A stretch of 64,000 nucleotides of DNA from a virus (taxonomy: Duplodnaviria; Caudoviricetes). The DNA is taken from the IMG/VR virus record IMGVR_UViG_3300033121_002193, positions 32,001 to 96,000 of that record; one strand, 5' to 3'. Below the pieces are notes generated by a model. The model did not search any database. It saw only the letters and a program-made list of their open reading frames with translations, and was not told the origin of the DNA. Below, piece after piece: positions 3,111 through 60,783 of the stretch; within the stretch, counting starts at the first letter, position 1; each line of letters opens with the position of its first letter. The translations under genes and the position numbers were made by a program.

Positions 3111-3512
3111 CTAAAAGCTCATATTGATATCAGGAGGTAATTCTTTTTGTTTATTTAGTGCTTCTTGTTCTTTTTTTAATTCATTAAACTCATTTTCTTT
3201 AATCCATTCCTGATCTTCTTCTTCCTTGGTTTTTGAATTTGTGTTTTCATTGTTTTTACTTTTTAAAAGATTATGTTTTGCTTTTAAAACATCATCATTT
3301 GATAAATTAGAGTAATAATTTTCATATAGATGTAACATTATATATGTTATATCTAATTTTTCAACATCAAGTAATGATACATGAAATAAAGAAGAAAATT
3401 GTCTTTGCATTGCTCTTATTTGACTATAAAAATCAGGATTTAATCTATTTTTTAGAGCAATTAAATTAATGGATTCTATGAGGTCTAATTCGGTCAAAAA
3501 ATTTTGTTTCAT
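3111..3512 (-). CDS. Probable tail assembly chaperone (second)
   Basis: 133 aa, directly upstream of the TMP; acidic C-terminus. Confidence 0.5.
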   Translation of the reverse strand: MKQNFLTELDLIESINLIALKNRLNPDFYSQIRAMQRQFSSLFHVSLLDVEKLDITYIMLHLYENYYSNLSNDDVLKAKHNLLKSKNNENTNSKTKEEEDQEWIKENEFNELKKEQEALNKQKELPPDINMSF

Positions 3513-3963: not shown

Positions 3964-4845
3964 TTACGTAAAGGTCAAAGTAGGTTGAAAAGTAAAATTA
4001 GCACAAAAAGAAACCCCGCTTACATCAACTGCAGAGCCACCAGAAACAGGTACAGACATCCATAAACCAAACATATCACCTTTAGATACAGGATAACCAG
4101 CAGGAGAATAAATATTAATACTATCAACATCACCAGGGAGAGCTACCACAACCGGAGCAATTGCAACTGGATTCGTTCGATTAATCTTTGTCGCTTTAAT
4201 AACCAAGCCATTAACTTCTGTTACTTTATACAATCCAACATTTTCACAATTAGGCCCTAAAAACGGGGTTCCGTTGATATTAAAATCAAGAAAATCGCCA
4301 ACAGATGGAGTATTTCTAAAAACAGTAGTAGCAGTAAAAACAATATCTTTACCACTTACAGTCATAGCATATTGTCCTCCATTTTGCAGCAATCCAACAT
4401 TTAAAGATAAAGGAATATCAACATATGTGTTATTTTCCATCCCGGTTAGTAAATGAATGCCAGAATTAATATAATTAGAAAAATTATTATAATAAGTAAA
4501 TGCCGTCAATCCATAGTCTTTGCTAGCTGTCGTAGCTGAAGTAAAAGAGCCGCCCACAACAAGTGAATCATAACAATATAAATCACCTTTTGTAATAAAT
4601 CCGTTACAAGGAACCTTGAAAATTGGCATGTGCTGATAATAAAGACCTACTGCTGGAGCAGGAAGCTTAAACATATGTGAAATATATTTATTCTTTATTC
4701 CATCAATTAAACCATCGCCAGCAATTAAATTACCTAATTTAATATCATCTTTTGTATTTCCAGTTAATTGCCCAAATGGTTTAAATGCTGGTTGTGAATT
4801 GCCAAAATCATTTAAAGTTTTTCTTTGTATTTCTAACATTGCCAT
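3964..4845 (-). CDS. Putative virion structural protein (beta-rich)
   Basis: 293 aa; RBS GGAG; CTTAATCT motif upstream; shares a PxVGD..NVGxYxV motif with the sheath inserts. Confidence 0.5.
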   Translation of the reverse strand: MAMLEIQRKTLNDFGNSQPAFKPFGQLTGNTKDDIKLGNLIAGDGLIDGIKNKYISHMFKLPAPAVGLYYQHMPIFKVPCNGFITKGDLYCYDSLVVGGSFTSATTASKDYGLTAFTYYNNFSNYINSGIHLLTGMENNTYVDIPLSLNVGLLQNGGQYAMTVSGKDIVFTATTVFRNTPSVGDFLDFNINGTPFLGPNCENVGLYKVTEVNGLVIKATKINRTNPVAIAPVVVALPGDVDSINIYSPAGYPVSKGDMFGLWMSVPVSGGSAVDVSGVSFCANFTFQPTLTFT

Positions 4846-36135: not shown

Positions 36136-37197
36136 CTATTCCTCTTTGTATAAAAAAATTAAATTAGCATTATAAAAAAAATGTTTACATAAATAAGTAT
36201 AAGTCTTCCTCTTCAAATGCCTTTGCAAATAGCCACAAAAATTAGCGCTTGGTTTTTTATGCAAAGCCCTTAAAGCAATGTCGTTGACCATGCCGCCGTT
36301 ATCAACACGGCAATAATCTTCACGGTAAGCCATTTCAGTGGCGTACATTTTCAAATATTTGCCGGCAATGTGGTGGTACACGCCAATTTCTGCACGGCGT
36401 AGTCGTGAAAAATAGCTTTCAGCGTGATTGATGCAGGCACCATTCAAAGGGTTGAGATATTGGACTTTGTGGTTGACCCTTTTGACCTGGTAGTTTTTCA
36501 CCAGTTGATCGTAAGCCGTATGCTCATCCGTATAAATCACAGATTTTCTGTCCACGTTTTTCTTGATGAATTTTCGTACAAATTTGGGATTTTCTTTTTT
36601 GGTGACGCTGACACGTGTTTCAACTGCCCCACTTTCTTCATCATGTGATTTTAAGACCATCACACATTGGCGTTTGCCGTTCTGATTTTCAGCCAAACGC
36701 CGATCAATTCGATCTTGCTTGTTATTCTCTGGCTTTATATAACCACCAAAATAAGCTCCATCTACTTCAACTTCACCAGTGATGGAATTTTCAAATTCAC
36801 GTTTCATGGCTTCACGCATTTTATGCATGAGCACATAGGCTGTTTTATATTGGACCTGTAAGTCACGTGACAGATGAAGGGCACTGATGCCTTTGGCACC
36901 ATTTGAGAAGAAAACAATGGCTGCCAAATAGTCTTGCAAAGACAGCTTATGATGGGCAAATAACGTATTGCTGGTCAAGGTGAACGTTTTTTTGCAGGCT
37001 GCACAACGCCAGGATTTGCGTGTCTGGATAAACCAGAACTTATCTTTGCTTGTGCAATGAGGGCAAACTGGGTTTCCGTCGTTTTCAGAAAAACGGATTT
37101 TTTTGAATGTTTCAAACACTTCCCCATCTGTCATTTTATACACTTGCTTCACTGACAGTGTTTTGGCTTGGGGTGATAGTAAAAAGTGTTGAGACAT
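36136..37197 (-). CDS. IS1595-family transposase
   Basis: CPHC..CAAC; GEVEVDGAYFGG, YTDE, NHAESYFSRLRR, EMAYRED. Confidence 0.93.
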   Translation of the reverse strand: MSQHFLLSPQAKTLSVKQVYKMTDGEVFETFKKIRFSENDGNPVCPHCTSKDKFWFIQTRKSWRCAACKKTFTLTSNTLFAHHKLSLQDYLAAIVFFSNGAKGISALHLSRDLQVQYKTAYVLMHKMREAMKREFENSITGEVEVDGAYFGGYIKPENNKQDRIDRRLAENQNGKRQCVMVLKSHDEESGAVETRVSVTKKENPKFVRKFIKKNVDRKSVIYTDEHTAYDQLVKNYQVKRVNHKVQYLNPLNGACINHAESYFSRLRRAEIGVYHHIAGKYLKMYATEMAYREDYCRVDNGGMVNDIALRALHKKPSANFCGYLQRHLKRKTYTYLCKHFFYNANLIFLYKEE

Positions 37198-37627: not shown

Positions 37628-38083
37628 ATGTTAAAAGCTCAAGATATAGCTGATTATTTTTTATTTAAAAATAAAATTGTAAGTGAAGATGATGAAGGAT
37701 TATCTAATTTAAAGCTCCAAAAGTTGTTATATTATGCACAGGGCTTTCATATTGCTATGTATAAGAAACCTTTGTTTCAAGAAGCTATTGAAGCTTGGAT
37801 TCATGGCCCCGTTGTTCCTGAAGTTTATCATACCTATAAACATTATGGTTCTGTTCCAATACAGTTTAATCAAGACATTGATTTAGAAAAATACGACAAG
37901 GATACCCAAGACTTAATAAGTGAAGTTAATAGGATACAGGGACAATTTGCGGCATGGAAATTAAGAAATATGACTCACGAAGAGCCGCCTTGGAAGAATA
38001 CCCAGCTTGGTAAAATTATTGAGCATAAATTATTAGAATCTTACTTCGAAACTTTACTCGTCGATGAAGAAAATACGAAATAA
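37628..38083 (+). CDS. Panacea (DUF4065/SocA-like) antitoxin
   Basis: SNLKLQKLLYYAQG, EAWIHGPVVPEVY, LRNMTHEEPPW. Confidence 0.9.
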   Translation: MLKAQDIADYFLFKNKIVSEDDEGLSNLKLQKLLYYAQGFHIAMYKKPLFQEAIEAWIHGPVVPEVYHTYKHYGSVPIQFNQDIDLEKYDKDTQDLISEVNRIQGQFAAWKLRNMTHEEPPWKNTQLGKIIEHKLLESYFETLLVDEENTK

Positions 38084-38480
38084 TCGAAATCAATTCGAAA
38101 AATCAAAAAGTATTAAACTCGACGAAAATCTAAACGTCAAACGAGAAGATGAGCATCCGATTTTTTGTTTTAAGTATTTACATAAAGATTATTCATTAGA
38201 ACAATGTGAAAATCACGAGAAAATAGCCTTAATAGAAAAGTTATGCAAATTAAGTCAATTAACTTGGAATCAAATACATAATAGTCATCGTCATGGATTG
38301 GGATGCGAAAAAATTTCCAGAGATGCCATCAGATGTGGCATTCCCCCTCATATAACTAGCGATGTAACATCATTTATTGCTTTTCGGTTTTGCAGTCATG
38401 CGCCGATGGTTGGATATAAAAACCAAAGAATATTTCATATCATATGGCTAGATAGAGATTTTACCCTCTATAAACATTAA
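38064..38480 (+). CDS. Putative toxin partner (RelE-like)
   Basis: Overlaps the antitoxin; HGLGCEKI..AFRF..MVGYK..IFHIIWLDRDFTLYKH. Confidence 0.6.
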   Translation: MKKIRNNRNQFEKSKSIKLDENLNVKREDEHPIFCFKYLHKDYSLEQCENHEKIALIEKLCKLSQLTWNQIHNSHRHGLGCEKISRDAIRCGIPPHITSDVTSFIAFRFCSHAPMVGYKNQRIFHIIWLDRDFTLYKH

Positions 38481-39131: not shown

Positions 39132-39290
39132 GTTTAAGCTGGTTTTTGCTTATCGCCAATCTTTATCATCCCATAACACATAAGTTATTATTTTTAATAA
39201 TATTAGAAATTCAGTAAAACGCTACCTATAAAAATTTTAAGTTAATGTTAGTTGTCATTTTGCTCACTAAATTATATGTTAAACAATATT

Positions 39291-39794
39291 ATGGCAGATA
39301 ATATAACAAACACCCTTAATCCAGAAACGGAAGCTCAAAAACTTTTAGAAGAATATTGGCCTGAAGGGGAATTCCCTATCAATCCTGCTGATATTGCTAA
39401 TAAGATGGGAATAAGAGTGTTAATTACTACTTTTGATGACTCAAAAATTTCTGGCGCGGTTATGAAAGAAGAAGATGGCCAACCTGAAATTTTAGTAAAC
39501 AAAAAAGATCCTCCAACAATAATAAGATTTAGCATTGCCCATGAATTAGGGCATATTATTCATAACGAACAAAATAAACAATTTGTTTACCTAGATTATA
39601 GAAATCAATTGGCTAGTAATGGTACGGATCCACATGAAATATTTGCCAATCAATTTGCTTCTTGTTTGCTCATGCCTAAAAAAGATGTTGGAGCCGCTTT
39701 TAATTTCCTAAAATTATCTGAGCTTGCACAACATTTTGATGTTTCTGAACAAGCTATAAAATTTAGACTTTTAAATTTAAATATCATGAACTAG
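39291..39794 (+). CDS. ImmA/IrrE-family Zn metallopeptidase
   Basis: FPINPADIA..RFSIAHELGH..EIFANQFASCLLMP..FDVS..AIKFRL. Confidence 0.9.
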   Translation: MADNITNTLNPETEAQKLLEEYWPEGEFPINPADIANKMGIRVLITTFDDSKISGAVMKEEDGQPEILVNKKDPPTIIRFSIAHELGHIIHNEQNKQFVYLDYRNQLASNGTDPHEIFANQFASCLLMPKKDVGAAFNFLKLSELAQHFDVSEQAIKFRLLNLNIMN

Positions 39795-46735: not shown

Positions 46736-47221
46736 CAAATTAAAATGTCTTTTTCAAGACACAAACATTCTTATTATTGCACATATCCGCAACTATACCT
46801 GCTACATTTGTCTAGCATTAAATGTACATGGCCAGATATTGTAAAAACACTATGCTTCAAAAATCATTTTAAAAGCCATTTTACGCATTTTGTTTTGCAC
46901 ATCTATAGCTTGGCATTGCTTATGATGTTTTCATCTATTAAACTGGCAATAAAGCGCTTTATTTTATGTATATTTGCTGTTGTTTGTGTAAGATGTGATA
47001 AAATTTTATACAATATATATAAAAATACCATAAAACAAAAGATGACGCACAGAGAGATACCACAACAACAAAGTAAATAAAAAAATATAATAGTGTTTTT
47101 TACACAATATTACAATGGTGTTTTGTGTGTACAATTATCTTTTGCAAGAAACGAATATGTGGAACAAAAAAAGTCTTAATCTAAATTATTGATATTACTT
47201 TCTTATAAAAGATAATAAACT

Positions 47222-47437
47222 ATGAATATAAAAAAATATAATTCTATTTTTAAAAAAAACAAAAATACAAAGATAAATAAACTTTCTAAAAATAAAAAAC
47301 ACAAACCTAAAAATCAAGCGGCAGTTACTTTGGGAAAATTAGGCGGAAAAGTTGGCGGTCCAGCAAGAGATAAGTCGTTGCCAAAAGCGAGAAAAATAGA
47401 AATTGCAAAACTTGGCGCCAAGCATAGATGGAAATAG
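47222..47437 (+). CDS. Small basic KGG-motif protein, homolog of 32987-33211
   Basis: AAVTLGKLGGKVGGPARDKSLPKARKIEIAKLGAKHRW; CTTAATCT at 47175 upstream. Confidence 0.7.
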   Translation: MNIKKYNSIFKKNKNTKINKLSKNKKHKPKNQAAVTLGKLGGKVGGPARDKSLPKARKIEIAKLGAKHRWK

Positions 47438-47465
47438 ATAAAATATTTTGTAAAACAAAAAAAAT

Positions 47466-47481
47466 GCTTGAGCGCTCAAGC
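47466..47481. promoter_or_regulatory. Perfect 16-bp palindrome
   Basis: GCTTGAGCGCTCAAGC; resembles the 29403 palindrome. Confidence 0.55.
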
Positions 47482-47684
47482 TAAGTGTATATTTTTTTGA
47501 ATTCATTTTAATCATAAGCACAAACGTATTATTTATATGACTTGTATAAAGCATGTTCTTTGTCAAATATTTTTAACACGATAGAAAAAAAATAAAAATC
47601 AAGAGGCATCAAAAAAAAACAAAACATTAATAAATCAACTTGACTTATTTGTTTCATTCGATATGATTTTTTTGATATTAATAT

Positions 47685-47757
47685 TCCGACTTAGCTCAGC
47701 TGGTAGAGCAGGTGACTGTTAATCATCGGGTCGCAGGTTCGATTCCTGCAGTCGGAG
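47685..47757 (+). tRNA. tRNA-Asn (GTT), CCA not encoded
   Basis: Acceptor stem TCCGACT/AGTCGGA; D-arm AGCTCAGCTGGTAGAGC; anticodon loop CTGTTAA; T-loop GTTCGATTC. Confidence 0.95.
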
Positions 47758-47797
47758 TTTTTTGTTGTAATTGAGATATTTATAATGGAGAAAAAAA

Positions 47798-48184
47798 ATG
47801 GAACAAATTGATGATACCGAAATAAAATCAACAATAAAATTAAAAAAAGAAACACTTGAAATAGAATTAAAAGATTTATGTAAAAAAATAGATGCAATAC
47901 AAAAAGAATTAAACAAATATAATTCTCTTTTAAAAATATTAAATCAACAAGAACCAATTCAAGATTCAAGACAAGCGAAGCAAGTGAGAATAAAAATATT
48001 ATTAGATAATTTAAAAACAAACGAAACCATTACACGAAAAAAAATAGAGTCAATTTTATCAAACAATCAGTTATCTGTAAATTCATATGTATTAACCAAT
48101 TACATTCATCATTTAAAAAAGCACAATTTTTTTACGCAAACCAGCAGAGGACTATTTAAATACACAGGAAAAACAATTGAATAA
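47798..48184 (+). CDS. Hypothetical coiled-coil / possible winged-helix protein
   Basis: 128 aa, GGAG RBS; ends TSRGLFKY. Confidence 0.6.
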   Translation: MEQIDDTEIKSTIKLKKETLEIELKDLCKKIDAIQKELNKYNSLLKILNQQEPIQDSRQAKQVRIKILLDNLKTNETITRKKIESILSNNQLSVNSYVLTNYIHHLKKHNFFTQTSRGLFKYTGKTIE

Positions 48185-48243
48185 TTAACCGAATAATATT
48201 TAAATAAACTTAATCATATAGTTGTTAATAAAAAGGCGCATAT

Positions 48244-49047
48244 ATGATTAAAATACCAGAAGAAAACAAACATTTTTCTAAAAAATCTTTAGTACAAACA
48301 TTAAAGAATACACAACCAATCCCATTTCCTGTTCCAAAAAAAAACAATATTCCTAAGACTTTTATATTAGCAATAGGAGTAGACGGTTTTGATAAGGAAA
48401 ATCAATTATTTTTTGCAGCTAAAGACGCACAAGATTTTGCTGATAAAATCGCATTAAACAATTCAAGAAAACAAACTTTTAGTATTGTATTAAAAAACAA
48501 TTACGCGACTAATATAAGTATCATGTCTGCGTTTAAATGGATTGAACAAAGTGCAGAAGAACAAGATGATGTTCATATCTTATTTTCTGGACATGGCACT
48601 GTTGATTTTGCAACTTTAAGATATTATTTTTTGTCTTATTCTCCAAAACAAAAACTTACATCCGACAGTTTATTGTCTGATGTTTGGATATCCAGTCTAA
48701 TTGGAAATATCAAAGGAAACGTTAGATTTTTTCTAGATAGTTGCTTTAGTAATAATTTCAATGACTATTTAATTAATTATCACCCTAAAATAAAATCACA
48801 ACAATTATCTTCTTATTCTTCTTCTTTGTCTTGGAAAATGTCATACGAAAATATTCCGTTTAAAAATGGTTTTTTTACCAAATCTATTTTAAATGCGTTA
48901 GATAGAAATCAATATATTTTCAAATATACTAAACAAACAGAAAAGCAATTAGGCCTAAGGCTTGATTGGAATCTTTTTGAATTAAGCAAAGGACTTCAAG
49001 GCTCTGGATTTTTTTATTGTACACAGCAACAACAAAAAATAAAATAA
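48244..49047 (+). CDS. Caspase-like (peptidase C14) protein
   Basis: LAIGVD, FSGHG and FLDSC (His-Cys dyad), NGFFTKSIL. Confidence 0.85.
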   Translation: MIKIPEENKHFSKKSLVQTLKNTQPIPFPVPKKNNIPKTFILAIGVDGFDKENQLFFAAKDAQDFADKIALNNSRKQTFSIVLKNNYATNISIMSAFKWIEQSAEEQDDVHILFSGHGTVDFATLRYYFLSYSPKQKLTSDSLLSDVWISSLIGNIKGNVRFFLDSCFSNNFNDYLINYHPKIKSQQLSSYSSSLSWKMSYENIPFKNGFFTKSILNALDRNQYIFKYTKQTEKQLGLRLDWNLFELSKGLQGSGFFYCTQQQQKIK

Positions 49048-49123
49048 CATGTTTTATTTGCAATGCAATTTTATGTGTGATATACTTGTCTCATAAAACG
49101 CTGAAAAAAAAAGAGAGATAAAA

Positions 49124-49732
49124 ATGAATTTAAAAAATATAATTACATTATTAATATTACTAACAAGCATTAATTGTAATGGTATTTCAAAAATAAAATT
49201 AAAATACTATGATTCAAATTCTGAAAATGAACAGATGTTATTATTAGATAGCGCAAAGAAGTTTAATGCTCTTATCGGTTGTGAGGCAGTAACTTTAGAA
49301 CATGTAGAAAAAACAAAAGAAGCGATTATTGGCAACGGAATTTCTGAAATTCAAATATTAGAATCAAATGTCATGAATATTTTGGCTGAAAAATCAGCGG
49401 CAGCATATGGAATAGACAAAGCAGCTGCAGTTACTTTTTTTGAAGATGATGATGTGTTTATCTCTAGACATAAATTAACGGATTGTTATTATGAAGACTT
49501 TGGACAGTGTGTTTATCTTAAAATAGACATTGTGTTTTTTCATGAAATTGGGCATGTATTTGGATTAATGCATAGTGAAAATGAAAGCGATATTATGAAT
49601 AAAATACCGGCAAACAAACATTCTGCTAATGATTTTATTGATTTTATTAATCAGTTACAAACAAAAACAAATATTTGTGATAAAAAAATAAATACTAATA
49701 CGTTTTTAACAATACAGAGAGATAAACAATGA
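49124..49732 (+). CDS. Matrixin-like zinc metalloprotease, probable lipoprotein
   Basis: HEIGHVFGLMH..DIM Met-turn; signal peptide ending INC; preceded by the 3' part of the cassette leader (49097). Confidence 0.8.
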   Translation: MNLKNIITLLILLTSINCNGISKIKLKYYDSNSENEQMLLLDSAKKFNALIGCEAVTLEHVEKTKEAIIGNGISEIQILESNVMNILAEKSAAAYGIDKAAAVTFFEDDDVFISRHKLTDCYYEDFGQCVYLKIDIVFFHEIGHVFGLMHSENESDIMNKIPANKHSANDFIDFINQLQTKTNICDKKINTNTFLTIQRDKQ

Positions 49733-50169
49733 AAATAACAAATGATGAAAAAACTTTAATAACTAAAGAAGAACAAACATGGCCACCTGAATATTGTGAA
49801 GTATATCTTGTTGATGAAAACAATTATGGAACTATTTTTTTTCGTGAAGAAAAAACTATAATTATAAAAGAACACGATAAAGAACAAAAAATACCAATTG
49901 ATAATATCATCGGTCAATATTGGGTTCCGACTTGTGAAAAAAGAATCTCTGGGATATGGTATCTTACAAATGTTGATATTATCTTACCTAGAAAAAACCT
50001 TTGGTTATATAGAAAACATTATAATGAAAAATATCCAACAAAAAAACAGCTGGCTGTTTATGATGAATGTTTAGCTGCATGGCTTATTGGAAATTCAGAA
50101 TATAATCACGGTGAACTTCAAGATGACTTTGATTATTATCAAATAGTACAAGAACCAAATGATCCTTAA
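49729..50169 (+). CDS. Hypothetical protein
   Basis: 146 aa, ATGA overlap with the previous gene. Confidence 0.6.
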   Translation: MKITNDEKTLITKEEQTWPPEYCEVYLVDENNYGTIFFREEKTIIIKEHDKEQKIPIDNIIGQYWVPTCEKRISGIWYLTNVDIILPRKNLWLYRKHYNEKYPTKKQLAVYDECLAAWLIGNSEYNHGELQDDFDYYQIVQEPNDP

Positions 50170-50270
50170 TTAACAGCTGAATTAATTAAATCAAAGGAAA
50201 ATTATGCAATTAATATTAACAGAAACATTTTGGGATTTACATAGATTTAAACTAAAAGAACGCTATTACA

Positions 50271-50771
50271 TTGCTCGAGTTACAAAAGCTCATGTATTTT
50301 ATGCAAGAGACGGGAGAGCCTTTGAAGCTCCACTTTAAAAAAGCGCTATATGGACCATATGCTGAAAACCTAAGGCATGTGCTCAACTATATTGAAGGGC
50401 ATTTTGTCAGTGGTTATCTTGATGGCGGCGATGATCCGACCAAGCCTTTAGAACTCAAGCCCAACGCTGTTCAAGAAGCGGAGCTTTACCTCAAAAATCA
50501 CCCTGCAACCAATGAGCGGTTGGAACGGGTCACCCAGCTTATTCAAGGATTTGAGACGCCCTACGGAATGGAGCTATTGTCTACAGTTTATTGGATAGCC
50601 AAAGATAAAAATGTGTTGGATGCAGAACAGGTCGTTAATGAATTTCATAATTTGAACGAGCGTAAACGCATGTTTAGTAGCGAGCATATTATGGTTACCC
50701 TAAAAACACTTCGTATTAAGCATTGGATAAAATCGTTATCAATTAAATTCGGAAGGAGAAGAAATTCATAA
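50271..50771 (+). CDS. DarG C-terminal domain, shorter copy (may be a pseudogene)
   Basis: LLELQKLMYFMQETGEPLKL..YGPYAENLRHVL..GFETPYGMELLSTVYW; no macrodomain; no clear RBS. Confidence 0.7.
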   Translation: MLELQKLMYFMQETGEPLKLHFKKALYGPYAENLRHVLNYIEGHFVSGYLDGGDDPTKPLELKPNAVQEAELYLKNHPATNERLERVTQLIQGFETPYGMELLSTVYWIAKDKNVLDAEQVVNEFHNLNERKRMFSSEHIMVTLKTLRIKHWIKSLSIKFGRRRNS

Positions 50772-50773
50772 AA

Positions 50774-50974
50774 ATGAAAATTTTACTAGACATAAAACCT
50801 GCCAAAGACAATTACTGTGGAGATGGGAACGGTAATTTTTGTCCTTTTATGTTAAAAAGGAAATTTGGCACAATCCCATTCTGTTCCGTTTTCGATAAGG
50901 ATTTGCCAATAACAAATAGAAAAATAACCAGGCTAGAAGAATGCGTTTGTTCCACAGCGAGTGGATTGTTATAA
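50774..50974 (+). CDS. Small Cys-rich hypothetical protein
   Basis: 66 aa, AAGGAG upstream. Confidence 0.55.
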   Translation: MKILLDIKPAKDNYCGDGNGNFCPFMLKRKFGTIPFCSVFDKDLPITNRKITRLEECVCSTASGLL

Positions 50975-51103
50975 AGAAAGTTAATTTTATGCTATTAACA
51001 GAAATAAGAGACTACATTGCTTCAAATGCCGAGAATATTTTGTTCCACCCGTCAGATATGGTTGGGAATGAGATAAAATTTTAATAATAAGAAGGGACTA
51101 TAT

Positions 51104-51568
51104 ATGTATGTTGTTGAAGATTTAAATAAACTTGCGAGTTTGCTTGGTCGATTCAGGATTGACAGACTTACAGTATATCTAAATAAATATGATTTGTATG
51201 AAGCCCAGAAAAACATAGGCGATAAAATTGTATACCCTATTGTTGTATGGGGAAAAAATAATATTTTTACGACTGGAACTCTACACATCAAAGGAGTAGA
51301 AGAACAAGACAATGAATCAATCTCCGACGGAGTTAGCTTTGATCATTTCATCCCTCTACCAAGTCTATGCTTAAATCCATCCAATGAGCACCCCGATAGC
51401 GTAGAGTATAGGACAAAAACGACTATAAATGGAGTCCAATATTGTGCATCAACAATTTTGCCAACAGACTTCATCAAAAATGAGGGAGACATAAACGCCA
51501 TCCGCCAAGTGCATAAAGAAAAAATATTAAAATCAGTTTTAGAAAAATCAAAAGATGGCTATACATAG
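51104..51568 (+). CDS. Hypothetical protein
   Basis: 154 aa, GAAGGG RBS. Confidence 0.6.
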   Translation: MYVVEDLNKLASLLGRFRIDRLTVYLNKYDLYEAQKNIGDKIVYPIVVWGKNNIFTTGTLHIKGVEEQDNESISDGVSFDHFIPLPSLCLNPSNEHPDSVEYRTKTTINGVQYCASTILPTDFIKNEGDINAIRQVHKEKILKSVLEKSKDGYT

Positions 51569-51708
51569 TATGCAATTTTATCGGTATGGTTCTTGTTATG
51601 GTGTGAGTTTGGACATTATAAATTTATTAAGGCAATAGGAAGCAAGTGGGCGCCAATGCCAAAATTTCCAGCGAATGAACTAGATTTAAAATGAGCTAAG
51701 TTTTTTAG

Positions 51709-51930
51709 ATGGACGGAGATCCCATGATGAAAAATAAAGAACACCAAAGCTTATGGACGGTGATAAAAAAATCAGGCCTATTTTCTCAGAACCCAGTTAG
51801 AATGACATATGAAATATCATATGAACAATTAATGATATTATGTGAAATACTGAATGGGCCTGGGAATAGAAAAACACTGCGAAGAAAAATAATAAAGATG
51901 TTTAGGCCAATAAAATGCGAAAAACAATAG
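51709..51930 (+). CDS. Hypothetical protein
   Basis: 73 aa; GGAG before an internal ATG. Confidence 0.45.
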   Translation: MDGDPMMKNKEHQSLWTVIKKSGLFSQNPVRMTYEISYEQLMILCEILNGPGNRKTLRRKIIKMFRPIKCEKQ

Positions 51931-52037
51931 GTGTGAAATGTGTACGCCTGTACCATTAGCGCCGATTGATTAGGCAACATTATGATAGGGGATTAGATGA
52001 GAATGTTGAAAATTTTAACAACAAGAAGAGATTCCAT

Positions 52038-52658
52038 ATGTGTGTTGCTGAAGATTTAAATAAAGAGAATTTTGCCGAACGGCAGATCCCGGAGATGACC
52101 ATCGGCCACGCAGCACTAGTAATGCTAATGCGTCGTTATTTAAGCGCCTTGATGGATCCAACTATTACATTGCTCGAGTTACAAAAGCTCATGTATTTTA
52201 TGCAAGAGACGGGAGAGCCTTTGAAGCTCCACTTTAAAAAAGCGCTATATGGACCATATGCTGAAAACCTAAGGCATGTGCTCAACTATATTGAAGGGCA
52301 TTTTGTCAGTGGTTATCTTGATGGCGGCGATGATCCGACCAAGCCTTTAGAACTCAAGCCCAACGCTGTTCAAGAAGCGGAGCTTTACCTCAAAAATCAC
52401 CCTGCAACCAATGAGCGGTTGGAACGGGTCACCCAGCTTATTCAAGGATTTGAGACGCCCTACGGAATGGAGCTATTGTCTACAGTTTATTGGATAGCCA
52501 AAGATAAAAATGTGTTGGATGCAGAACAGGTCGTTAATGAATTTCATAATTTGAACGAGCGTAAACGTATGTTTAGTAGCGAGCATATTATGGTTACCCT
52601 AAAAACACTTCGTATTAAGCATTGGATAAAACCAGTATTATGTAGCAGCTACACCTAA
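52038..52658 (+). CDS. Stand-alone DarG C-terminal (DarT-binding) domain fused to a phage-type start
   Basis: MCVAEDLNK + PEMTIGHAALVMLMRRYLSALMDPTITLLELQKLMYF..; start region paralogous to 51104. Confidence 0.75.
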   Translation: MCVAEDLNKENFAERQIPEMTIGHAALVMLMRRYLSALMDPTITLLELQKLMYFMQETGEPLKLHFKKALYGPYAENLRHVLNYIEGHFVSGYLDGGDDPTKPLELKPNAVQEAELYLKNHPATNERLERVTQLIQGFETPYGMELLSTVYWIAKDKNVLDAEQVVNEFHNLNERKRMFSSEHIMVTLKTLRIKHWIKPVLCSSYT

Positions 52659-53100: not shown

Positions 53101-53240
53101 AAAAATCTTGTAGACATTTATGTATCATCTAACGAAAAGTGTGTTTAAACTTGTTTTTAATTATGTTGTTACAATAAAATACATGGCCCATATGTAAAAA
53201 AAACTACCACAAAAAATCAACTCATATAATGTTTCTTTTT

Positions 53241-53651
53241 TCATTTGTTTTTTCCTTTTTGTATTAATAATTTATTATCAGCTATAAAATCACAAGCTGA
53301 TAAAATTAAATATTGTCTACATATTTCATCTATTATGTTTTCTTTTTTATTTTTTATTTGCAAATAACACAAAAAATAACTATTGCAAGATAATAACATA
53401 AATTTTGTTTCCCATGTACACATTTTAATCCATGGTGTAAAAAAATTATTTTGTATTAAGTAATTATTAATATCTATTATAGTTTTGTCTGTTAAATTTT
53501 TACACTTAACATGATGCACAATAAAAGAAACAGCCATATCTAAAAACTGATCATGCATTTTTTGTAATTTTTTATCAGTTCGTAAAGACTTAATAAATAA
53601 TAAGCTATTTTCGAAATTATTCTTTTTCATTTTTATTTTTCCTATTGACAA
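53241..53651 (-). CDS. Hypothetical protein
   Basis: 136 aa ORF. Confidence 0.5.
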   Translation of the reverse strand: MSIGKIKMKKNNFENSLLFIKSLRTDKKLQKMHDQFLDMAVSFIVHHVKCKNLTDKTIIDINNYLIQNNFFTPWIKMCTWETKFMLLSCNSYFLCYLQIKNKKENIIDEICRQYLILSACDFIADNKLLIQKGKNK

Positions 53652-53690
53652 ATATTATTTTTTTAATAATTGTGATTTCTTTACTGGGTT

Positions 53691-53730
53691 AAAAGGGGCT
53701 CTTCACCCTCTCAAAGTGAGCCCCTTTTTT
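53691..53730. terminator. GC-rich hairpin with A/T tails
   Basis: AAAAGGGGCTC..GAGCCCCTTTTTT. Confidence 0.55.
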
Positions 53731-53830
53731 TATTTCTATCCGATAAAAAATATTTGTCAAAAATAATGCATAAAAAAACTTATAATATTTCTATTGTAAA
53801 ATCTATCTTTTTTATGTTAGAAACACAAAA

Positions 53831-54019
53831 ATGAAAAAAGAACTCTACGGAATTTTGTTGTTTTTTTTATTTTCTATTGTTATAACGATAGAACCATTTA
53901 ATACAATTTTTAAAAAACTATTAATTCTTTTGATTTATATTTTGTTGCGCTTAACAAAAAGAATGCTTCTTTTTTTAGAAAAAGCACTAAAATATTTAAC
54001 GAAAAATGATAATCAATAA
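53831..54019 (+). CDS. Small membrane protein
   Basis: 62 aa, hydrophobic. Confidence 0.4.
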   Translation: MKKELYGILLFFLFSIVITIEPFNTIFKKLLILLIYILLRLTKRMLLFLEKALKYLTKNDNQ

Positions 54020-54214
54020 TATTAAAATCATTTGACTTTTATTTTAATTATGATAAATAGATTTTAGATGAGTTAAAAAAACGATGAAAAAGTTTGAGAA
54101 AGGAGAATTGACGATGAAATACAAAAAGCTACATTTTTGATAAATTATTTTTTTCGCTGAAACACATAAAGTAAAAAAACAATAAACAAGATAAAATTTA
54201 ATGGAGATATTATT

Positions 54215-55480
54215 ATGACAATGATTGCTATTAACAGTTATGAACAACAAAATTACCCAATGCTTACTAGAAGTTTACGAAATGCAACTGTAGGGTTGTA
54301 TCGAAAAACTTCAAAAACAAAACAAATAACTCTTAAAAAGAACAACAAGGAATCCTTTAATCAACAAGAACAACTTGAAATTGAAGATTATGACATTACA
54401 TCTGTTCCTAATGATTTTAATGTTGCGACCATTTTTTCACAAATCGAAAAAGGAAGTTTAAAAATCCCCCCTTTTCAAAGAAATTATGTTTGGGACATTA
54501 AAAGAGCAAGCAAATTAATAGAATCTATTTTAAGAGGTTTGCCTATTCCTCAAATATTTTTATACGAAACAGAAAAAAAGGAATATTTAGTAATTGATGG
54601 ACAACAAAGATTGATGTCTATTTATTATTTTATGAAAATGATGTTTCCTGTAAAAGAAAAAAGAGCGGAATTAAGAAAACAATGTGATTCAGGCCATGTT
54701 TCTGAAAAACTTTTACAAAACGATACTTACTTTAAAACATTTAAGCTAAAATTGCCTGATAATGTATTAGGAAAACCAAACAAATTTAAAAATTTGACAT
54801 ATGAAACTTTAAGTGAAGTAGATAAAGAAACTTTTGAATTAAGTCCGATTCGTTGTGTTGTTATTAAACAAAACAAAATACATGCAGATGATTCGTGTGT
54901 ATTTGAAATATTTCATAGACTTAATTCTGGTGGGATAAATTTACATCCACAAGAAATAAGAATGAGTTTATACTATTCTCGGTTTTTTGAAACATTAAAC
55001 AACTTAAATAACCAACCTGAATGGAGACGTTTATTTTGCTTAGAAAACCCAGAATTTCACACAAAAGATATTGAAACAATTTTACGCGGTTTTGCTTTGC
55101 TAGAATGGGAAGATAAATACACCCCTTCATTGATTAAATTTTTAAACAATTATAGCAAAAAAAGCCAATCAAACACCGATGAAGAAAATAATTATATGAA
55201 ATGTTTGTTTTTATCTTTTTTGCAAGCAACAAAGAAATTGCCAAAAAACGCTTTTATACGCAATGATAAATTTAATTTAACTTTATTTGAATCTGTTTTT
55301 GTTGCAACTTGCACCAATGCATTTAAAACAAAAACAATTGTCACTAACAGTATTGATTATGACAAGATTATGGAACTGTCAACTGATTCTGTGTTTCTAG
55401 AGGCGGCACAAAAAAACACAACCTCTACTATAAATGTCAAAAAAAGAATTTTACGCGCAATCCAAATTTTAAATACCTAA
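54215..55480 (+). CDS. DUF262 (ParB/GmrS-like) protein
   Basis: PPFQRNYVW, LIESILRGLPIP, IDGQQRL, IFHRLNSGG. Confidence 0.9.
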   Translation: MTMIAINSYEQQNYPMLTRSLRNATVGLYRKTSKTKQITLKKNNKESFNQQEQLEIEDYDITSVPNDFNVATIFSQIEKGSLKIPPFQRNYVWDIKRASKLIESILRGLPIPQIFLYETEKKEYLVIDGQQRLMSIYYFMKMMFPVKEKRAELRKQCDSGHVSEKLLQNDTYFKTFKLKLPDNVLGKPNKFKNLTYETLSEVDKETFELSPIRCVVIKQNKIHADDSCVFEIFHRLNSGGINLHPQEIRMSLYYSRFFETLNNLNNQPEWRRLFCLENPEFHTKDIETILRGFALLEWEDKYTPSLIKFLNNYSKKSQSNTDEENNYMKCLFLSFLQATKKLPKNAFIRNDKFNLTLFESVFVATCTNAFKTKTIVTNSIDYDKIMELSTDSVFLEAAQKNTTSTINVKKRILRAIQILNT

Positions 55481-55615
55481 GGGGTTGACTTTGAATTTTT
55501 CGTTATATAACACTTTTAATAGCAGTTAATAATCTTTAACAAAGGAGGATGTATAAAAACGTGTAAACCCAGGCACATTTTAAAGAAAAAAAAACAATCA
55601 AACGATGAGGGTGAA

Positions 55616-55864
55616 ATGCAAAAGATAGAATACAATGCGCTTCTTAGACATTATGATGATGAAGTAAATATAAAAATTAACAATTTTAATAATTTTTTAA
55701 AAGGACTGATAAAACTCAATTATCCGATTACAGGAATGTCTAACACATTGATGAAGCAATGCATTGATTTAGAAGAACGTTTGCTTTCAATGGCAAGCTT
55801 AGAACTAAATGAATCTGCAGACACAGATGAAACCAATAACAACGATAAAAATAAAAGAGATTAA
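55616..55864 (+). CDS. Hypothetical protein
   Basis: 82 aa, GAGG RBS. Confidence 0.5.
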   Translation: MQKIEYNALLRHYDDEVNIKINNFNNFLKGLIKLNYPITGMSNTLMKQCIDLEERLLSMASLELNESADTDETNNNDKNKRD

Positions 55865-55921
55865 AGCTTTATAGATAGTTTATTATTGACTTGTAATAAA
55901 CTATCTAATAAATAGTTAATA

Positions 55922-56167
55922 ATGCCAGTATTTCAACTTGATTACTTTGTTGGAAAAAATAAAATTCAGCAAATAGTAAAGTATTATCACGGCATGCAAC
56001 ATCCGTACAGGATTTTTACTTACATTAATCGATTTAATGCTGGATTTGCAAAACAAAAAGAAACATTAGAAGAATGTATTTGGATTACCTTCAGCACGAT
56101 TAATGATGCTCACACCGATTTATTTTGGGAAAAACCAAATTTCATGAAAATGCTAAAAATGCCATAA
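55922..56167 (+). CDS. Hypothetical protein
   Basis: 81 aa ORF. Confidence 0.5.
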   Translation: MPVFQLDYFVGKNKIQQIVKYYHGMQHPYRIFTYINRFNAGFAKQKETLEECIWITFSTINDAHTDLFWEKPNFMKMLKMP

Positions 56168-56209
56168 AAATATTTAGCCTTATTTTAATATTTATGCTAT
56201 ATAACACTC

Positions 56210-56677
56210 ATGGCTTTTCAAATGTATTTTTTTGTTGAAAAATGCGTAAATGAAAAATGGATTTCTTGCGATTTATGGGAACAAGATTTTTACTATAAAA
56301 ATTGTTTTTTTGTTCCTGATAAATATTGTTTTATTAAACATAAAACCACAGAACTTGCTTCTATATTAACAGGATACAAAAATTTAATTGAACCAATTAA
56401 ATACTCTTATGACATTCCAAAAAATGTTTGTTTTCCTGTAAAATTACTCATAGATTATGAGAAAAATTACGGTGGCGGATTCACTAAATGCCACAATTCT
56501 TACAATATTGATGAATTAGTTGAATTTTTTGAAAACAAAAAACATACTCAAAAAACAAAAAAATTCATTGATAGTCACTTGAAAGAGTTTACAAAAATAA
56601 CTCTTAAGAAATTAAAACAAATTAAGAACAAAAAAGAAGTTTCAAATGTGCGTATCATTGTTTGGTTAGAAAATTAA
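56210..56677 (+). CDS. Conserved phage hypothetical, probable paralog of 27296
   Basis: FFVEK..KW..HNSYNIDEL..VRIIVWLEN. Confidence 0.55.
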   Translation: MAFQMYFFVEKCVNEKWISCDLWEQDFYYKNCFFVPDKYCFIKHKTTELASILTGYKNLIEPIKYSYDIPKNVCFPVKLLIDYEKNYGGGFTKCHNSYNIDELVEFFENKKHTQKTKKFIDSHLKEFTKITLKKLKQIKNKKEVSNVRIIVWLEN

Positions 56678-56982
56678 GGTTTTTTACAAAAACTATCCAA
56701 GATTTGATTAGTTTTTTTGTCGACTATTTTACCATTTTTTTGCAATTCAGATGTAACTTTACAAAATTCATCTTTTGGTTTTCTATATAACCCTGTGTTT
56801 TCATCTAAACATAGTTCATTTTTTGTTTGATAAGAATCATTTGAAAACAAATTTATTTGTCTTTCTAAGTTTAATTGCGCTTCAGTTTGATTGGTATTAA
56901 TAAAATCAGTTGTTATATTTTTAAAATTCTCCATCCAAGAAACACACGTTTTATTTCCATTGATTGAATTTCCACACGACAT
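56674..56982 (-). CDS. Hypothetical protein
   Basis: 102 aa, AAAGGA RBS. Confidence 0.5.
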   Translation of the reverse strand: MSCGNSINGNKTCVSWMENFKNITTDFINTNQTEAQLNLERQINLFSNDSYQTKNELCLDENTGLYRKPKDEFCKVTSELQKNGKIVDKKTNQILDSFCKKP

Positions 56983-56994
56983 AATATCATCCTT

Positions 56995-57351
56995 TCATAA
57001 ATAAAAATAAATTTGTTTTTTAAACCCATCTATCTCGTTACAAAAAAAATCATAATCTATAATCAATTCTTCTTTGTTTTCTTTTTGTATTTTAAAACAA
57101 CTATCTAATTCATTATTTGAATTATAAAAAAACTCAATGATTTTCCCATTGAAAAAATTTAACATGATTTTTTCTTGATTGTCAAAAAGAAAACAATAAT
57201 CGTTTTGACTTGCAAAAGTTTCATTATTTAATTCTGTTTTTATAGAGATATTGTATTGTTGGTTTAATTTAATGTCTCCAAATTCAAAACTTTCCAACAT
57301 CCCAATAATGGAAGTTCTTTTTACAATTTTTTTATTATCAATATTTGACAT
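56995..57351 (-). CDS. Hypothetical protein
   Basis: 118 aa, AAGGAG RBS. Confidence 0.6.
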   Translation of the reverse strand: MSNIDNKKIVKRTSIIGMLESFEFGDIKLNQQYNISIKTELNNETFASQNDYCFLFDNQEKIMLNFFNGKIIEFFYNSNNELDSCFKIQKENKEELIIDYDFFCNEIDGFKKQIYFYL

Positions 57352-59337: not shown

Positions 59338-60783
59338 TTAGCCAGTAACCCCATCACCCAAAACACTTGTACGTGGCAAATTTGCAGTAATACAACCGAA
59401 AGAATAATAAATCTTACGAATTGACGTGTCGATAGTAGCTGCATTCAAGGCTTCAAAAGGCACCAACATATGTTTTTCAATCCATTGTTCATCGAGTAAA
59501 AATGCAGTCGAAGAACCAGGAACTTTATTATTCAAATCTACAAACACTGTAGTTGCTAATCCAGAATTTGCAACTCGGCCAATAAATTTCATATTAGCTT
59601 TATTTGTTGCGCCAATTGTGCCAACAGAACGATAAACATTAAACCAACGAGCAGCATTACCAGCTGCAGGGGTAATTGTAATATTTACTAAATCACCAGC
59701 TGCAACAATGGTTACACTAGAAATTGCAGAACCAACCGTGCTTTCGCCCGCTTCGTTTTGTGCAGTAACATAGTAAGAATAAACTTGACCTGCACCAAAA
59801 GTAGTACCGTCAGCAGCACGAGCAACTGCAATTGTTGGATTACTTGGAGCCAAAGAACTTGTTTTTACAGGCGGACTGTTTTTACCACGTAAAAATACAG
59901 AACTTTGAATCATTACGTTTGTGTTTGTCACCCATTGCGTATTTATTTGAGCACCCTGTGCTTGTTGTGGCGTGCCCGCTAAAATAATTCGTTCTTTTGC
60001 TTGCGATTGTTTATTGTATGCAACTCTTTCATCTACGCCCAAATATAGTTTATTGGCTTCGCCATAATTATTAATACTTCTTTTTTGCATATCTTCAATA
60101 TTCGATTGAGACAAAACGCCACCAACAGGAACAATATTAGAATTTCCTGCACCGTATTCTGTCATCATCAAATCTTGTGTAGATAAATCCGTATCACTTT
60201 GACGAATTTGAACGTCAAGGCCTCTCATGCTTGGCATTGTTGCAGGAATTGCGGCCGGATTACCATCAAATAAACCACCGTTTGAAAAGTCTGCTTGACC
60301 ACGAAACATATCAAATTCAATATCGCCAGCAATCTTTTTTGCACAAGATTCTGCATTTCGTGCTTCATTATCCATTCCATCAAACGATTCTACTTTAGTT
60401 AAAGCAACGCTAGTGCGGCTATTTGTCGTATAAAACTTAATAGGCATAAACGCACGATGAAAATCTGGCGTATTATCTTGTCCTGCACTTACTTCTAATG
60501 TAGCAGAACTACCTAAAGTGCCATAGCTTAGTTGACGATTATATTCAACCGTCATTGATTTTGCTTTTTTTTCTGTTAATTGTTTTGTTAAAAACAAATG
60601 TTTGTCTTGATAAGTCGCCGTATACATAACTGGTGACAAATCTTCGATTTGAAGTGCCGCACCTTGTGTAAATCCGCCAGGATTACCTACACGATAACCT
60701 GCCTCTAGACCTTTTTCTAAGCGGCTATTATTAAGTGCTTCCATGATATACGTAAGTTTTTCTTTGATTGAATCCATTGACAT
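59338..60783 (-). CDS. Major capsid protein (K/SPO1-like)
   Basis: KGLEAGY..GAALQIEDL; IEFDMFRG; C-terminal insertion YYVTAQNEAGES..FNVYRS..FVDLN. Confidence 0.88.
   Translation of the reverse strand: MSMDSIKEKLTYIMEALNNSRLEKGLEAGYRVGNPGGFTQGAALQIEDLSPVMYTATYQDKHLFLTKQLTEKKAKSMTVEYNRQLSYGTLGSSATLEVSAGQDNTPDFHRAFMPIKFYTTNSRTSVALTKVESFDGMDNEARNAESCAKKIAGDIEFDMFRGQADFSNGGLFDGNPAAIPATMPSMRGLDVQIRQSDTDLSTQDLMMTEYGAGNSNIVPVGGVLSQSNIEDMQKRSINNYGEANKLYLGVDERVAYNKQSQAKERIILAGTPQQAQGAQINTQWVTNTNVMIQSSVFLRGKNSPPVKTSSLAPSNPTIAVARAADGTTFGAGQVYSYYVTAQNEAGESTVGSAISSVTIVAAGDLVNITITPAAGNAARWFNVYRSVGTIGATNKANMKFIGRVANSGLATTVFVDLNNKVPGSSTAFLLDEQWIEKHMLVPFEALNAATIDTSIRKIYYSFGCITANLPRTSVLGDGVTG

Follow-up and report, generated by a model that had tools for sequence, protein, structure and literature searches.

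The locus and its surroundings

We analyzed a window of 64,000 nucleotides (the whole stretch of DNA under study), corresponding to bases 32001–96000 of a linear, 135,485-bp virus record in IMG/VR that is 84% complete according to CheckV. A major head protein at 59338–60783 marks the record as a phage; the major capsid protein shares 45% identity with that of Myxococcus phage Mx1, other matches being ~25%. The features of the locus are collected in Table 1, and coordinates refer to the window unless another contig is named. We denoted the main gene, which encodes a stand-alone C-terminal domain (CTD) of DarG, as copy B. Its protein is mildly acidic in net charge (pI 6.07), with a phage-derived cap at residues 1–9, DarG linker at residues ~10–19, and the folded domain at residues 20–194. 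The gene had been described as GC-richer than the backbone, and this is confirmed: its GC content is 0.42 versus 0.31 for the window, and its GC3 of 0.435 exceeds both the mean of 0.25 for 12 long backbone ORFs and the values of 0.13–0.18 for three genes just upstream (48244–50169). A promoter and terminator scan returned 10 promoter-like sites against a mean of 16.4 in shuffled sequence, none of them convincingly placed for copy B.

Table 1. Features of the CTD locus (positions in the window)
Feature	Position	Strand	Description
Start of the L003-type 86-aa gene	50204–50338	+	ATG 50204, ribosome-binding site AAAGGA
Copy A	50263–50745	+	5′-truncated CTD sequence, ~483 nt, 1 mismatch to 52162–52644
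Imported cassette	50970–52631	+	154-aa gene, 73-aa gene and CTD gene; 97% identical to L005 2461–4121 (blastn)
154-aa gene	51104–51568	+	Upstream in the cassette; partner in the pair of paralogous starts
73-aa gene	51709–51930	+	Directly upstream of copy B, 108-nt gap
Grafted start region	52009–52064	+	Purine-rich ribosome-binding site (AAGAAGAG), ATG and first 9 codons
Copy B (CTD gene)	52038–52658	+	ATG 52038, 206 aa, intact stand-alone DarG C-terminal (DarT-binding) domain

Several other genes of the window were recognizable. Downstream of copy B, at 54215–55480 (+), lies a gene for a GmrSD_N/DUF262 protein (Pfam, E = 2.5e-35), which is conserved in the related contig L003 and whose matches to the PADLOC models NsnA (E = 3e-54) and PD-T4-2_A (E = 3e-45) mark it as a defence-type gene. 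Upstream, at 48244–49732 (+), the gene for a 267-aa protein with a weak match to the PADLOC “caspase” model (E = 3e-8) stands before that for a matrixin-like Peptidase_M10 protein of 202 aa (E = 6e-7), and this caspase-like/metallopeptidase pair is conserved upstream of the CTD gene in contigs L003, L004, and L011. A single tRNA-Asn (GTT) is found in the accessory region at 47684–47758 (+), and an ImmA/IrrE-type Peptidase_M78 protein (E = 6.5e-23) is encoded at 39252–39794 (+). At 37628–38480 (+), a gene for a 151-aa SocA/Panacea protein (PF13274, E = 2.9e-20) shares 20 nt with a 138-aa ORF that belongs to no family, and adjoins an IS1595 transposase gene at 36136–37197 (−). The best named relative of the transposase is 59% identical and comes from a Chitinophagales MAG, with many alphaproteobacterial matches at ~50%. 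The two genes at 37628–38480 could be a PanA–toxin pair carried by the IS element, or the former could be a second orphan antitoxin.

Identity and fold of the encoded protein

The preliminary description read the ORF as the C-terminal half of DarG, and profile as well as structural comparisons bear this out. The NCBIfam DarG model NF048014 matches copy B over model positions 158–338 of 338 (E = 5.7e-51, 173.8 bits; 172.1 bits in the genome search), and the score stays under the curated whole-protein cut-off of 250 bits because half of the model is missing. The PADLOC DarG model is covered from 153 to 326 of 329 positions (E = 2.8e-52). Query residues 20–189 match PDB chain 7yk3_B, the Mycobacterium tuberculosis DarG chain of the DarT–DarG crystal complex (E = 5e-22), with an identity to the solved chain of 33–34%, and the nearest full-length DarGs, which consist of macrodomain and CTD and are encoded beside DarT, are 60–64% identical. 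Alignment with these full-length proteins places the beginning of the similarity in the interdomain linker (..IPEMTIG..) at residue ~10–12, from where it continues to the C-terminus. Pfam (searched to E = 10) and PHROGs v4 assigned no family to the protein; there was no match to Pfam Macro either, so the N-terminal glycohydrolase macrodomain of DarG is missing.

We built an AlphaFold2 model of copy B on a 61-sequence alignment (pLDDT 89.1, pTM 0.84), in which disorder is limited to residues 1–11 and 203–206. The model superimposes on 7yk3_D with Z = 22.8 and an rmsd of 1.8 Å over 174 residues (VIA-align), and Foldseek returned the DarG chain of 7YK3 with E = 4e-11 (TM 0.78/0.85). This chain is the sole strong match in the PDB, the next one being a generic winged helix at Z = 8.4. 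Copy B is a complete C-terminal, DarT-binding domain of DarG without the macrodomain, as the profile match over the whole CTD and the fold both indicate.

Search for DarT, macrodomain, and NADAR genes

The absence of darT and macrodomain genes, previously claimed for the window, extends to the whole 135,485-bp record. DarT was found there neither with Pfam PF14487 nor with our own profile of 53 DarT sequences (A4); macrodomains (PF01661), for which the control genomes gave matches, and NADAR were likewise not found in the record. The Pfam DarT search gave no match in the standard control genomes and was validated on two DarTG-carrying virus records (G001 and G002, E = 1e-61 to 1e-66). The darT gene that adjoins darG in DarTG2 is thus missing from the copy B locus, and copy B is, like the anti-DarT factors (Adf), phage-encoded and without a cognate toxin. 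As the record is incomplete, the remainder of the phage genome could still encode DarT or a macrodomain.

Grafted start and imported cassette

The start region of copy B had been taken to be paralogous to that of gene 51104, and the comparison agrees. Positions 52009–52064 are 86% identical over 56 nt (family D3) to 51075–51130, which comprise the ribosome-binding site and first 9 codons of gene 51104, and the two proteins begin with MCVAEDLNK (copy B) and MYVVEDLNK (gene 51104); DarG linker follows right after the cap. An equivalent pair of paralogous starts exists in contig L005, and the called gene product of a relative (P0001) begins at the ATG equivalent to 52038.

The 154-aa and 73-aa proteins of the cassette are 91% and 100% identical, respectively, to their L005 counterparts, and the 73-aa gene is found upstream of the CTD gene only in the L005/L007-type context. 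The 154-aa protein had no match in Pfam, NCBIfam, PHROGs, or PADLOC, and its rows in the ESM Atlas were at chance level; judged from its sequence, it is not a recognizable toxin. A stretch of ~65 nt at 50964–51027 matches L005 at ~2461–2525 and again at 4141–4205, which are the cassette boundaries, and has the look of a recurring junction sequence for cassette exchange.

A truncated second copy and the history of the locus

The preliminary description dealt with one gene, and we found two copies of the domain. Copy A is without the first ~41 domain residues, including the first helix of the model, and its translation could begin only at an internal TTG (50271; ORF 50271–50771, 166 aa), with a TAA shutting the frame just upstream. 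At 50263 it is directly preceded by the beginning of the 86-aa gene, which is in a different frame (+1), and the 44-aa product of this fusion stops within CTD DNA.

The window is collinear with L003 at ~91–92% identity (blastn) over 47041–50273 and 53144–57000. The former segment aligns with L003 1–3235, where the 86-aa gene starts at 3166, and L003 has one CTD gene, located after a 146-aa and an 86-aa gene. Between these flanks, 50263–50753 and 50970–52631 are 97–98% identical to L005 in permuted order. The 3′ tails fit this picture, that of copy A resembling the L005 gene (..KSLSIKF..) and that of copy B the L003 gene (..KPVLCSS..). The L003-type flanks, the L005-like segments, and the 3′ tails together indicate that an L003-type backbone recombined with an L005-type cassette via the CTD gene, an event that would have produced the out-of-frame fusion between the beginning of the 86-aa gene and the truncated duplicate. 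Copy A is probably a non-functional recombination scar, a by-product of the arrival of the cassette, and its expression from the TTG at 50271 is possible. We also considered a programmed frameshift from the ORF at 50204 into copy A and rejected it, since the junction is the breakpoint of the L003 backbone and the TAA shuts the CTD frame upstream.

Distribution of the domain in viruses and bacteria

Among 24 IMG/VR loci with the domain, 23 (contigs L017–L039) carry the full set of DarT, macrodomain, and CTD, and the only CTD-only locus (L016) comes from a relative of this phage. Given 23 viral or proviral contigs with the whole system, DarTG2 itself is often phage- or prophage-borne. A search of 50,697 cultured-phage records gave one CTD match, in Thermus phage phiMa, which has a complete darT–darG locus (L015, MH673674.1, 26343–28099); its darT, annotated as hypothetical, matches Pfam DarT with E = 2e-59 and is accompanied by a full-length darG. 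DarT lies directly upstream of DarG in 97 of the 105 comparison loci from IMG/VR and GTDB genomes, and the nearest full-length DarGs are likewise directly downstream of DarT (L008 and L009).

CTD-only genes also occur in bacteria (L087, L041, and L064). In an Alphaproteobacteria MAG (L087:2474–3073), the CTD-only ORF starts with MQAEF.., like the C-terminal KQAEFL motif of DarT, abuts hsdR of a type I restriction system, and groups near the phage clade in the tree; it looks as though the 3′ end of darT and the macrodomain had been lost by a deletion in place. In L041 (1723–3160), the CTD-only gene is preceded at a distance of 10 nt by a gene for a DUF3800-like, 287-aa protein, which itself comes after an MmeI-type enzyme, and in L064 (736–3058), it is located before hsdR, with ATPase-like 416-aa and 170-aa proteins encoded upstream. 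In both of these loci, the binding domain of DarG may have been re-used with other effectors.

Within the literature searchable up to November 2026, we found no report of a phage-encoded, macrodomain-less DarG CTD, and for other Adf names (AdfC/D/G) the literature yielded only unrelated acronyms.

Phage relatives and selective constraint

A homologue search covering 5.8 billion proteins returned three close macrodomain-less homologues of 203–207 aa (96, 85, and 88% identity), followed by thousands of full-length DarGs of ~345 aa; the L016 protein (91% identity) is a fourth macrodomain-less relative. The CTD gene without macrodomain is thus present in at least five related phage contigs, and in four different neighborhoods. 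It comes after the 146-aa and 86-aa genes and before the GmrSD-like gene in L003 and L004 (context 1). In L005–L007 (context 2), it follows the 154-aa and 73-aa genes, or 136-aa and 68-aa genes, and precedes 125-aa and 121-aa genes, with RecT further downstream. L011–L014 (context 3) have it after 86-aa, 316-aa, and 30-aa genes and before 71-aa and 156-aa genes, and the arrangement of the present window is the fourth context. The flanking genes are non-homologous between contexts, both upstream and downstream, and gave no match to a toxin or any other family. With four neighborhoods and non-homologous flanks, no partner toxin travels with the CTD gene, which has been moved between genome positions by recombination.

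Full-length DarGs surround the phage versions in a maximum-likelihood tree of CTDs, where all five group together as a single clade (support 0.998); this topology points to one capture followed by spread. The phage versions are all intact (203–207 aa) and all begin in the DarG linker, behind four different N-terminal caps. To measure constraint, we calculated pairwise dN/dS among the five phage versions over the folded core (residues 18–198) with a codon bootstrap. The values range from 0.19 to 0.61 with dS up to 0.22, and for nine of 10 pairs the bootstrap 95% interval stays under 1. The phage CTD is under purifying selection, which is not how a decaying fragment behaves, and the constraint is looser than in typical housekeeping proteins. 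Across 105 DarG CTDs, conservation reaches 90% or more in 68 alignment columns, 63 of which are kept in copy B. Departures from conservation include H49Q and H151Y, which are shared by all phage versions at sites 91–98% conserved in bacteria; W172L, which is found in this phage and L005 at a position where Trp is invariant in 105 bacterial and viral DarGs; and a cluster of changes at residues 79–101 of the L003 version. Judged by these replacements, the surface of the phage CTD may have been retargeted or partly relaxed.

Proposed function and known counterparts

DarT2 ADP-ribosylates thymine in ssDNA and thereby blocks phage replication, and the macrodomain of DarG2 reverses the mark. The CTD of DarG2 binds DarT directly and blocks its DNA-binding/active site by imitating ssDNA (Jankevicius 2016, PMC5179494; Deep et al. 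2023, as cited in 10.1101/2023.12.14.571748). The preliminary description proposed that the phage uses the toxin-binding half as a stand-alone inhibitor. What stands of this proposal is a whole CTD cut at the linker, the 7YK3 fold, the lack of a partner, and purifying selection; its picture of a single gene does not stand, given the second copy. On the basis of sequence and predicted fold, we favor the reading, with a probability of about 0.6, that copy B is an orphan anti-DarT2 factor that acts without enzymatic activity: the DarT2-binding domain of DarG2, freed from its macrodomain and provided with a phage gene start. We hold it at slightly better than even odds that the stand-alone DarG2 domain would add a new class to the anti-DarT factors: it would soak up DarT2 stoichiometrically, like a sponge, and be the non-enzymatic counterpart of AdfM, shuffled in cassettes behind interchangeable gene starts. 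As the DarG clade around the phage CTDs is 53–64% identical across phyla, the sponge might serve for many DarT2s.

During infection, the phage CTD would bind host DarT2 in the ssDNA-binding/active-site groove, as the M. tuberculosis DarG CTD does, and would re-sequester DarT2 freed from the host’s own DarG. Sequestered in this way, DarT2 would leave the thymines of phage DNA free of ADP-ribose, and replication would continue. We only infer the binding to host DarT2, its sufficiency without an enzyme, and the timing of expression. A catalytically dead, full-length DarG of Thermus aquaticus (K80A, CTD intact) inhibited DarT in vitro, and its rescue of Escherichia coli was limited to minor growth (PMC5179494). 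By analogy with this poor rescue, binding by the CTD alone may be too weak unless the phage makes much of the protein.

Phage T4 Dmd replaces the host antitoxin by directly binding RnlA or LsoA. Dmd is non-homologous to host antitoxins, whereas copy B derives from the antitoxin itself. The known phage counters to DarTG are the small binders AdfA and AdfB, the NADAR enzyme AdfN (PMC11825919), and the macrodomain enzyme AdfM (PMC13309987, PMC13716836). The DarG2 CTD in 7YK3 is the same domain over its whole length and has the same fold; the phage protein differs from DarG2 in having neither a macrodomain nor an adjoining darT, in its 9-residue phage cap, and in the replacement of H49, H151, and W172. 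AdfM (PhiKZ gp104, T4 Tk.4) is likewise a phage-encoded piece of DarG2 without DarT and acts against DarTG2 (PMC13309987, PMC13716836), but it is the other half of DarG2, an enzyme that strips ADP-ribose from DNA, whereas copy B could only bind the toxin. AdfN (T4 30.3) is comparable in concept and route, being an orphan bacterial antitoxin taken by phages (PMC11825919), but it has a NADAR fold, is enzymatic, and is directed at the guanine-modifying DarT1 of DarTG1. Of AdfB (ICP1 Gp145) and AdfA (T-even 61.2), the former binds DarT directly and non-enzymatically as an “antitoxin mimic” (10.1101/2023.12.14.571748), as is proposed for copy B. With 77 aa and <15% similarity to either half of DarG, Gp145 is a mimic, in contrast to copy B as a true homologue of the antitoxin.

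The CTD of DarG has been reported to be a remote homologue of the Panacea/DUF4065 antitoxin domain (PMC13621843), which is hyperpromiscuous, pairs with dozens of unrelated toxins, and also occurs in phages (PMC8832971). The motif L-x-L-Q-K-L-x-Y-x-x-Q is common to the CTD and to Panacea proteins (PanA, SocA), but PanA has an adjacent toxin and copy B has none: in place of the two-gene toxin operon of Panacea, we found neighbors that vary across the four contexts and match no toxin family. Pfam PF13274 (Panacea/SocA) gave no match to copy B at E values up to 10, and in the genome search it matched only another gene (37715–37996). When we aligned the CTD profile with the phage’s own Panacea protein by hhalign, 18 residues containing the LQKLxY motif were aligned with a probability of 1.9%. 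As the comparison gave this 18-residue motif only, the link to Panacea rests on the literature.

Alternative interpretations

The relationship to promiscuous Panacea domains (PMC13621843, PMC8832971) leads to the reading that the domain has been retargeted by a similar swapping of partners and is now a type II antitoxin or inhibitor of a toxin other than DarT2, this toxin being either phage-encoded (in toxin–antitoxin function or superinfection exclusion) or a host defence effector. Such a change would accord with the bacterial CTD-only genes beside non-DarT genes (L041 and L064), with the lineage-specific replacements H49Q, H151Y, and W172L at conserved sites, and with the presence of a bona fide Panacea protein in the same phage (37628–38083). 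However, the identity of 60–64% to DarT-linked DarGs and the retention of 93% of conserved positions do not suggest a new partner, no gene is conserved beside the CTD gene in the four contexts, the neighbors are without toxin-like matches, and the Pfam Panacea model is silent on copy B even at E = 10. We consider retargeting credible but unlikely. It is quite unlikely, too, that the protein acts outside toxin neutralization, as an inhibitor of another host ssDNA-binding protein or as a regulator, roles that an acidic mimic of ssDNA with one winged-helix half could take. Its N-terminal half does resemble winged-helix domains (ORC/Cdc6, MarR, Z = 5–8), and ssDNA mimicry is the mode published for the CTD (10.1101/2023.12.14.571748). 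Yet Z values at this level are common for unrelated folds, a pI of 6.07 is only mildly acidic, nothing points to another target, and the pattern of conservation mirrors that of DarT-linked DarGs.

We regard as very improbable the remaining reading, in which copy B has no function and is what remains of a captured DarTG locus, hitch-hiking in an accessory region prone to recombination. In its favor, copy A is clearly a remnant of this kind and the region is a mosaic, the GC3 of copy B has not drifted to the backbone value, some dN/dS values are high (0.61 for L003 versus L011, with an interval that includes 1), and L087 exemplifies a bacterial CTD-only relic of in-place deletion. Decay is nevertheless difficult to reconcile with five diverged versions (dS up to 0.22) that are all intact, with dN/dS significantly below 1 in nine of 10 pairs, with an exact domain boundary and a functional-looking start of its own in each version, or with a gene that has repeatedly moved to new positions while staying whole.

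Implications

Read as an anti-DarT2 factor, copy B is best filed with the orphan, antitoxin-derived anti-DarT factors, among which it would supply the missing combination of a true homologue and the binding half only. Should the phage CTD neutralize DarT2, each half of a two-mode antitoxin can by itself serve as a counter-defence. The phage would also constitute a natural experiment on whether sequestration of the toxin alone protects replicating DNA, after the weak in vivo rescue by catalytically dead DarG, and its protein could serve as a compact inhibitor in DarT2-based tools. The locus further shows how genes move in these phages, with cassettes recombining at shared gene starts and within a gene and leaving a truncated duplicate behind.
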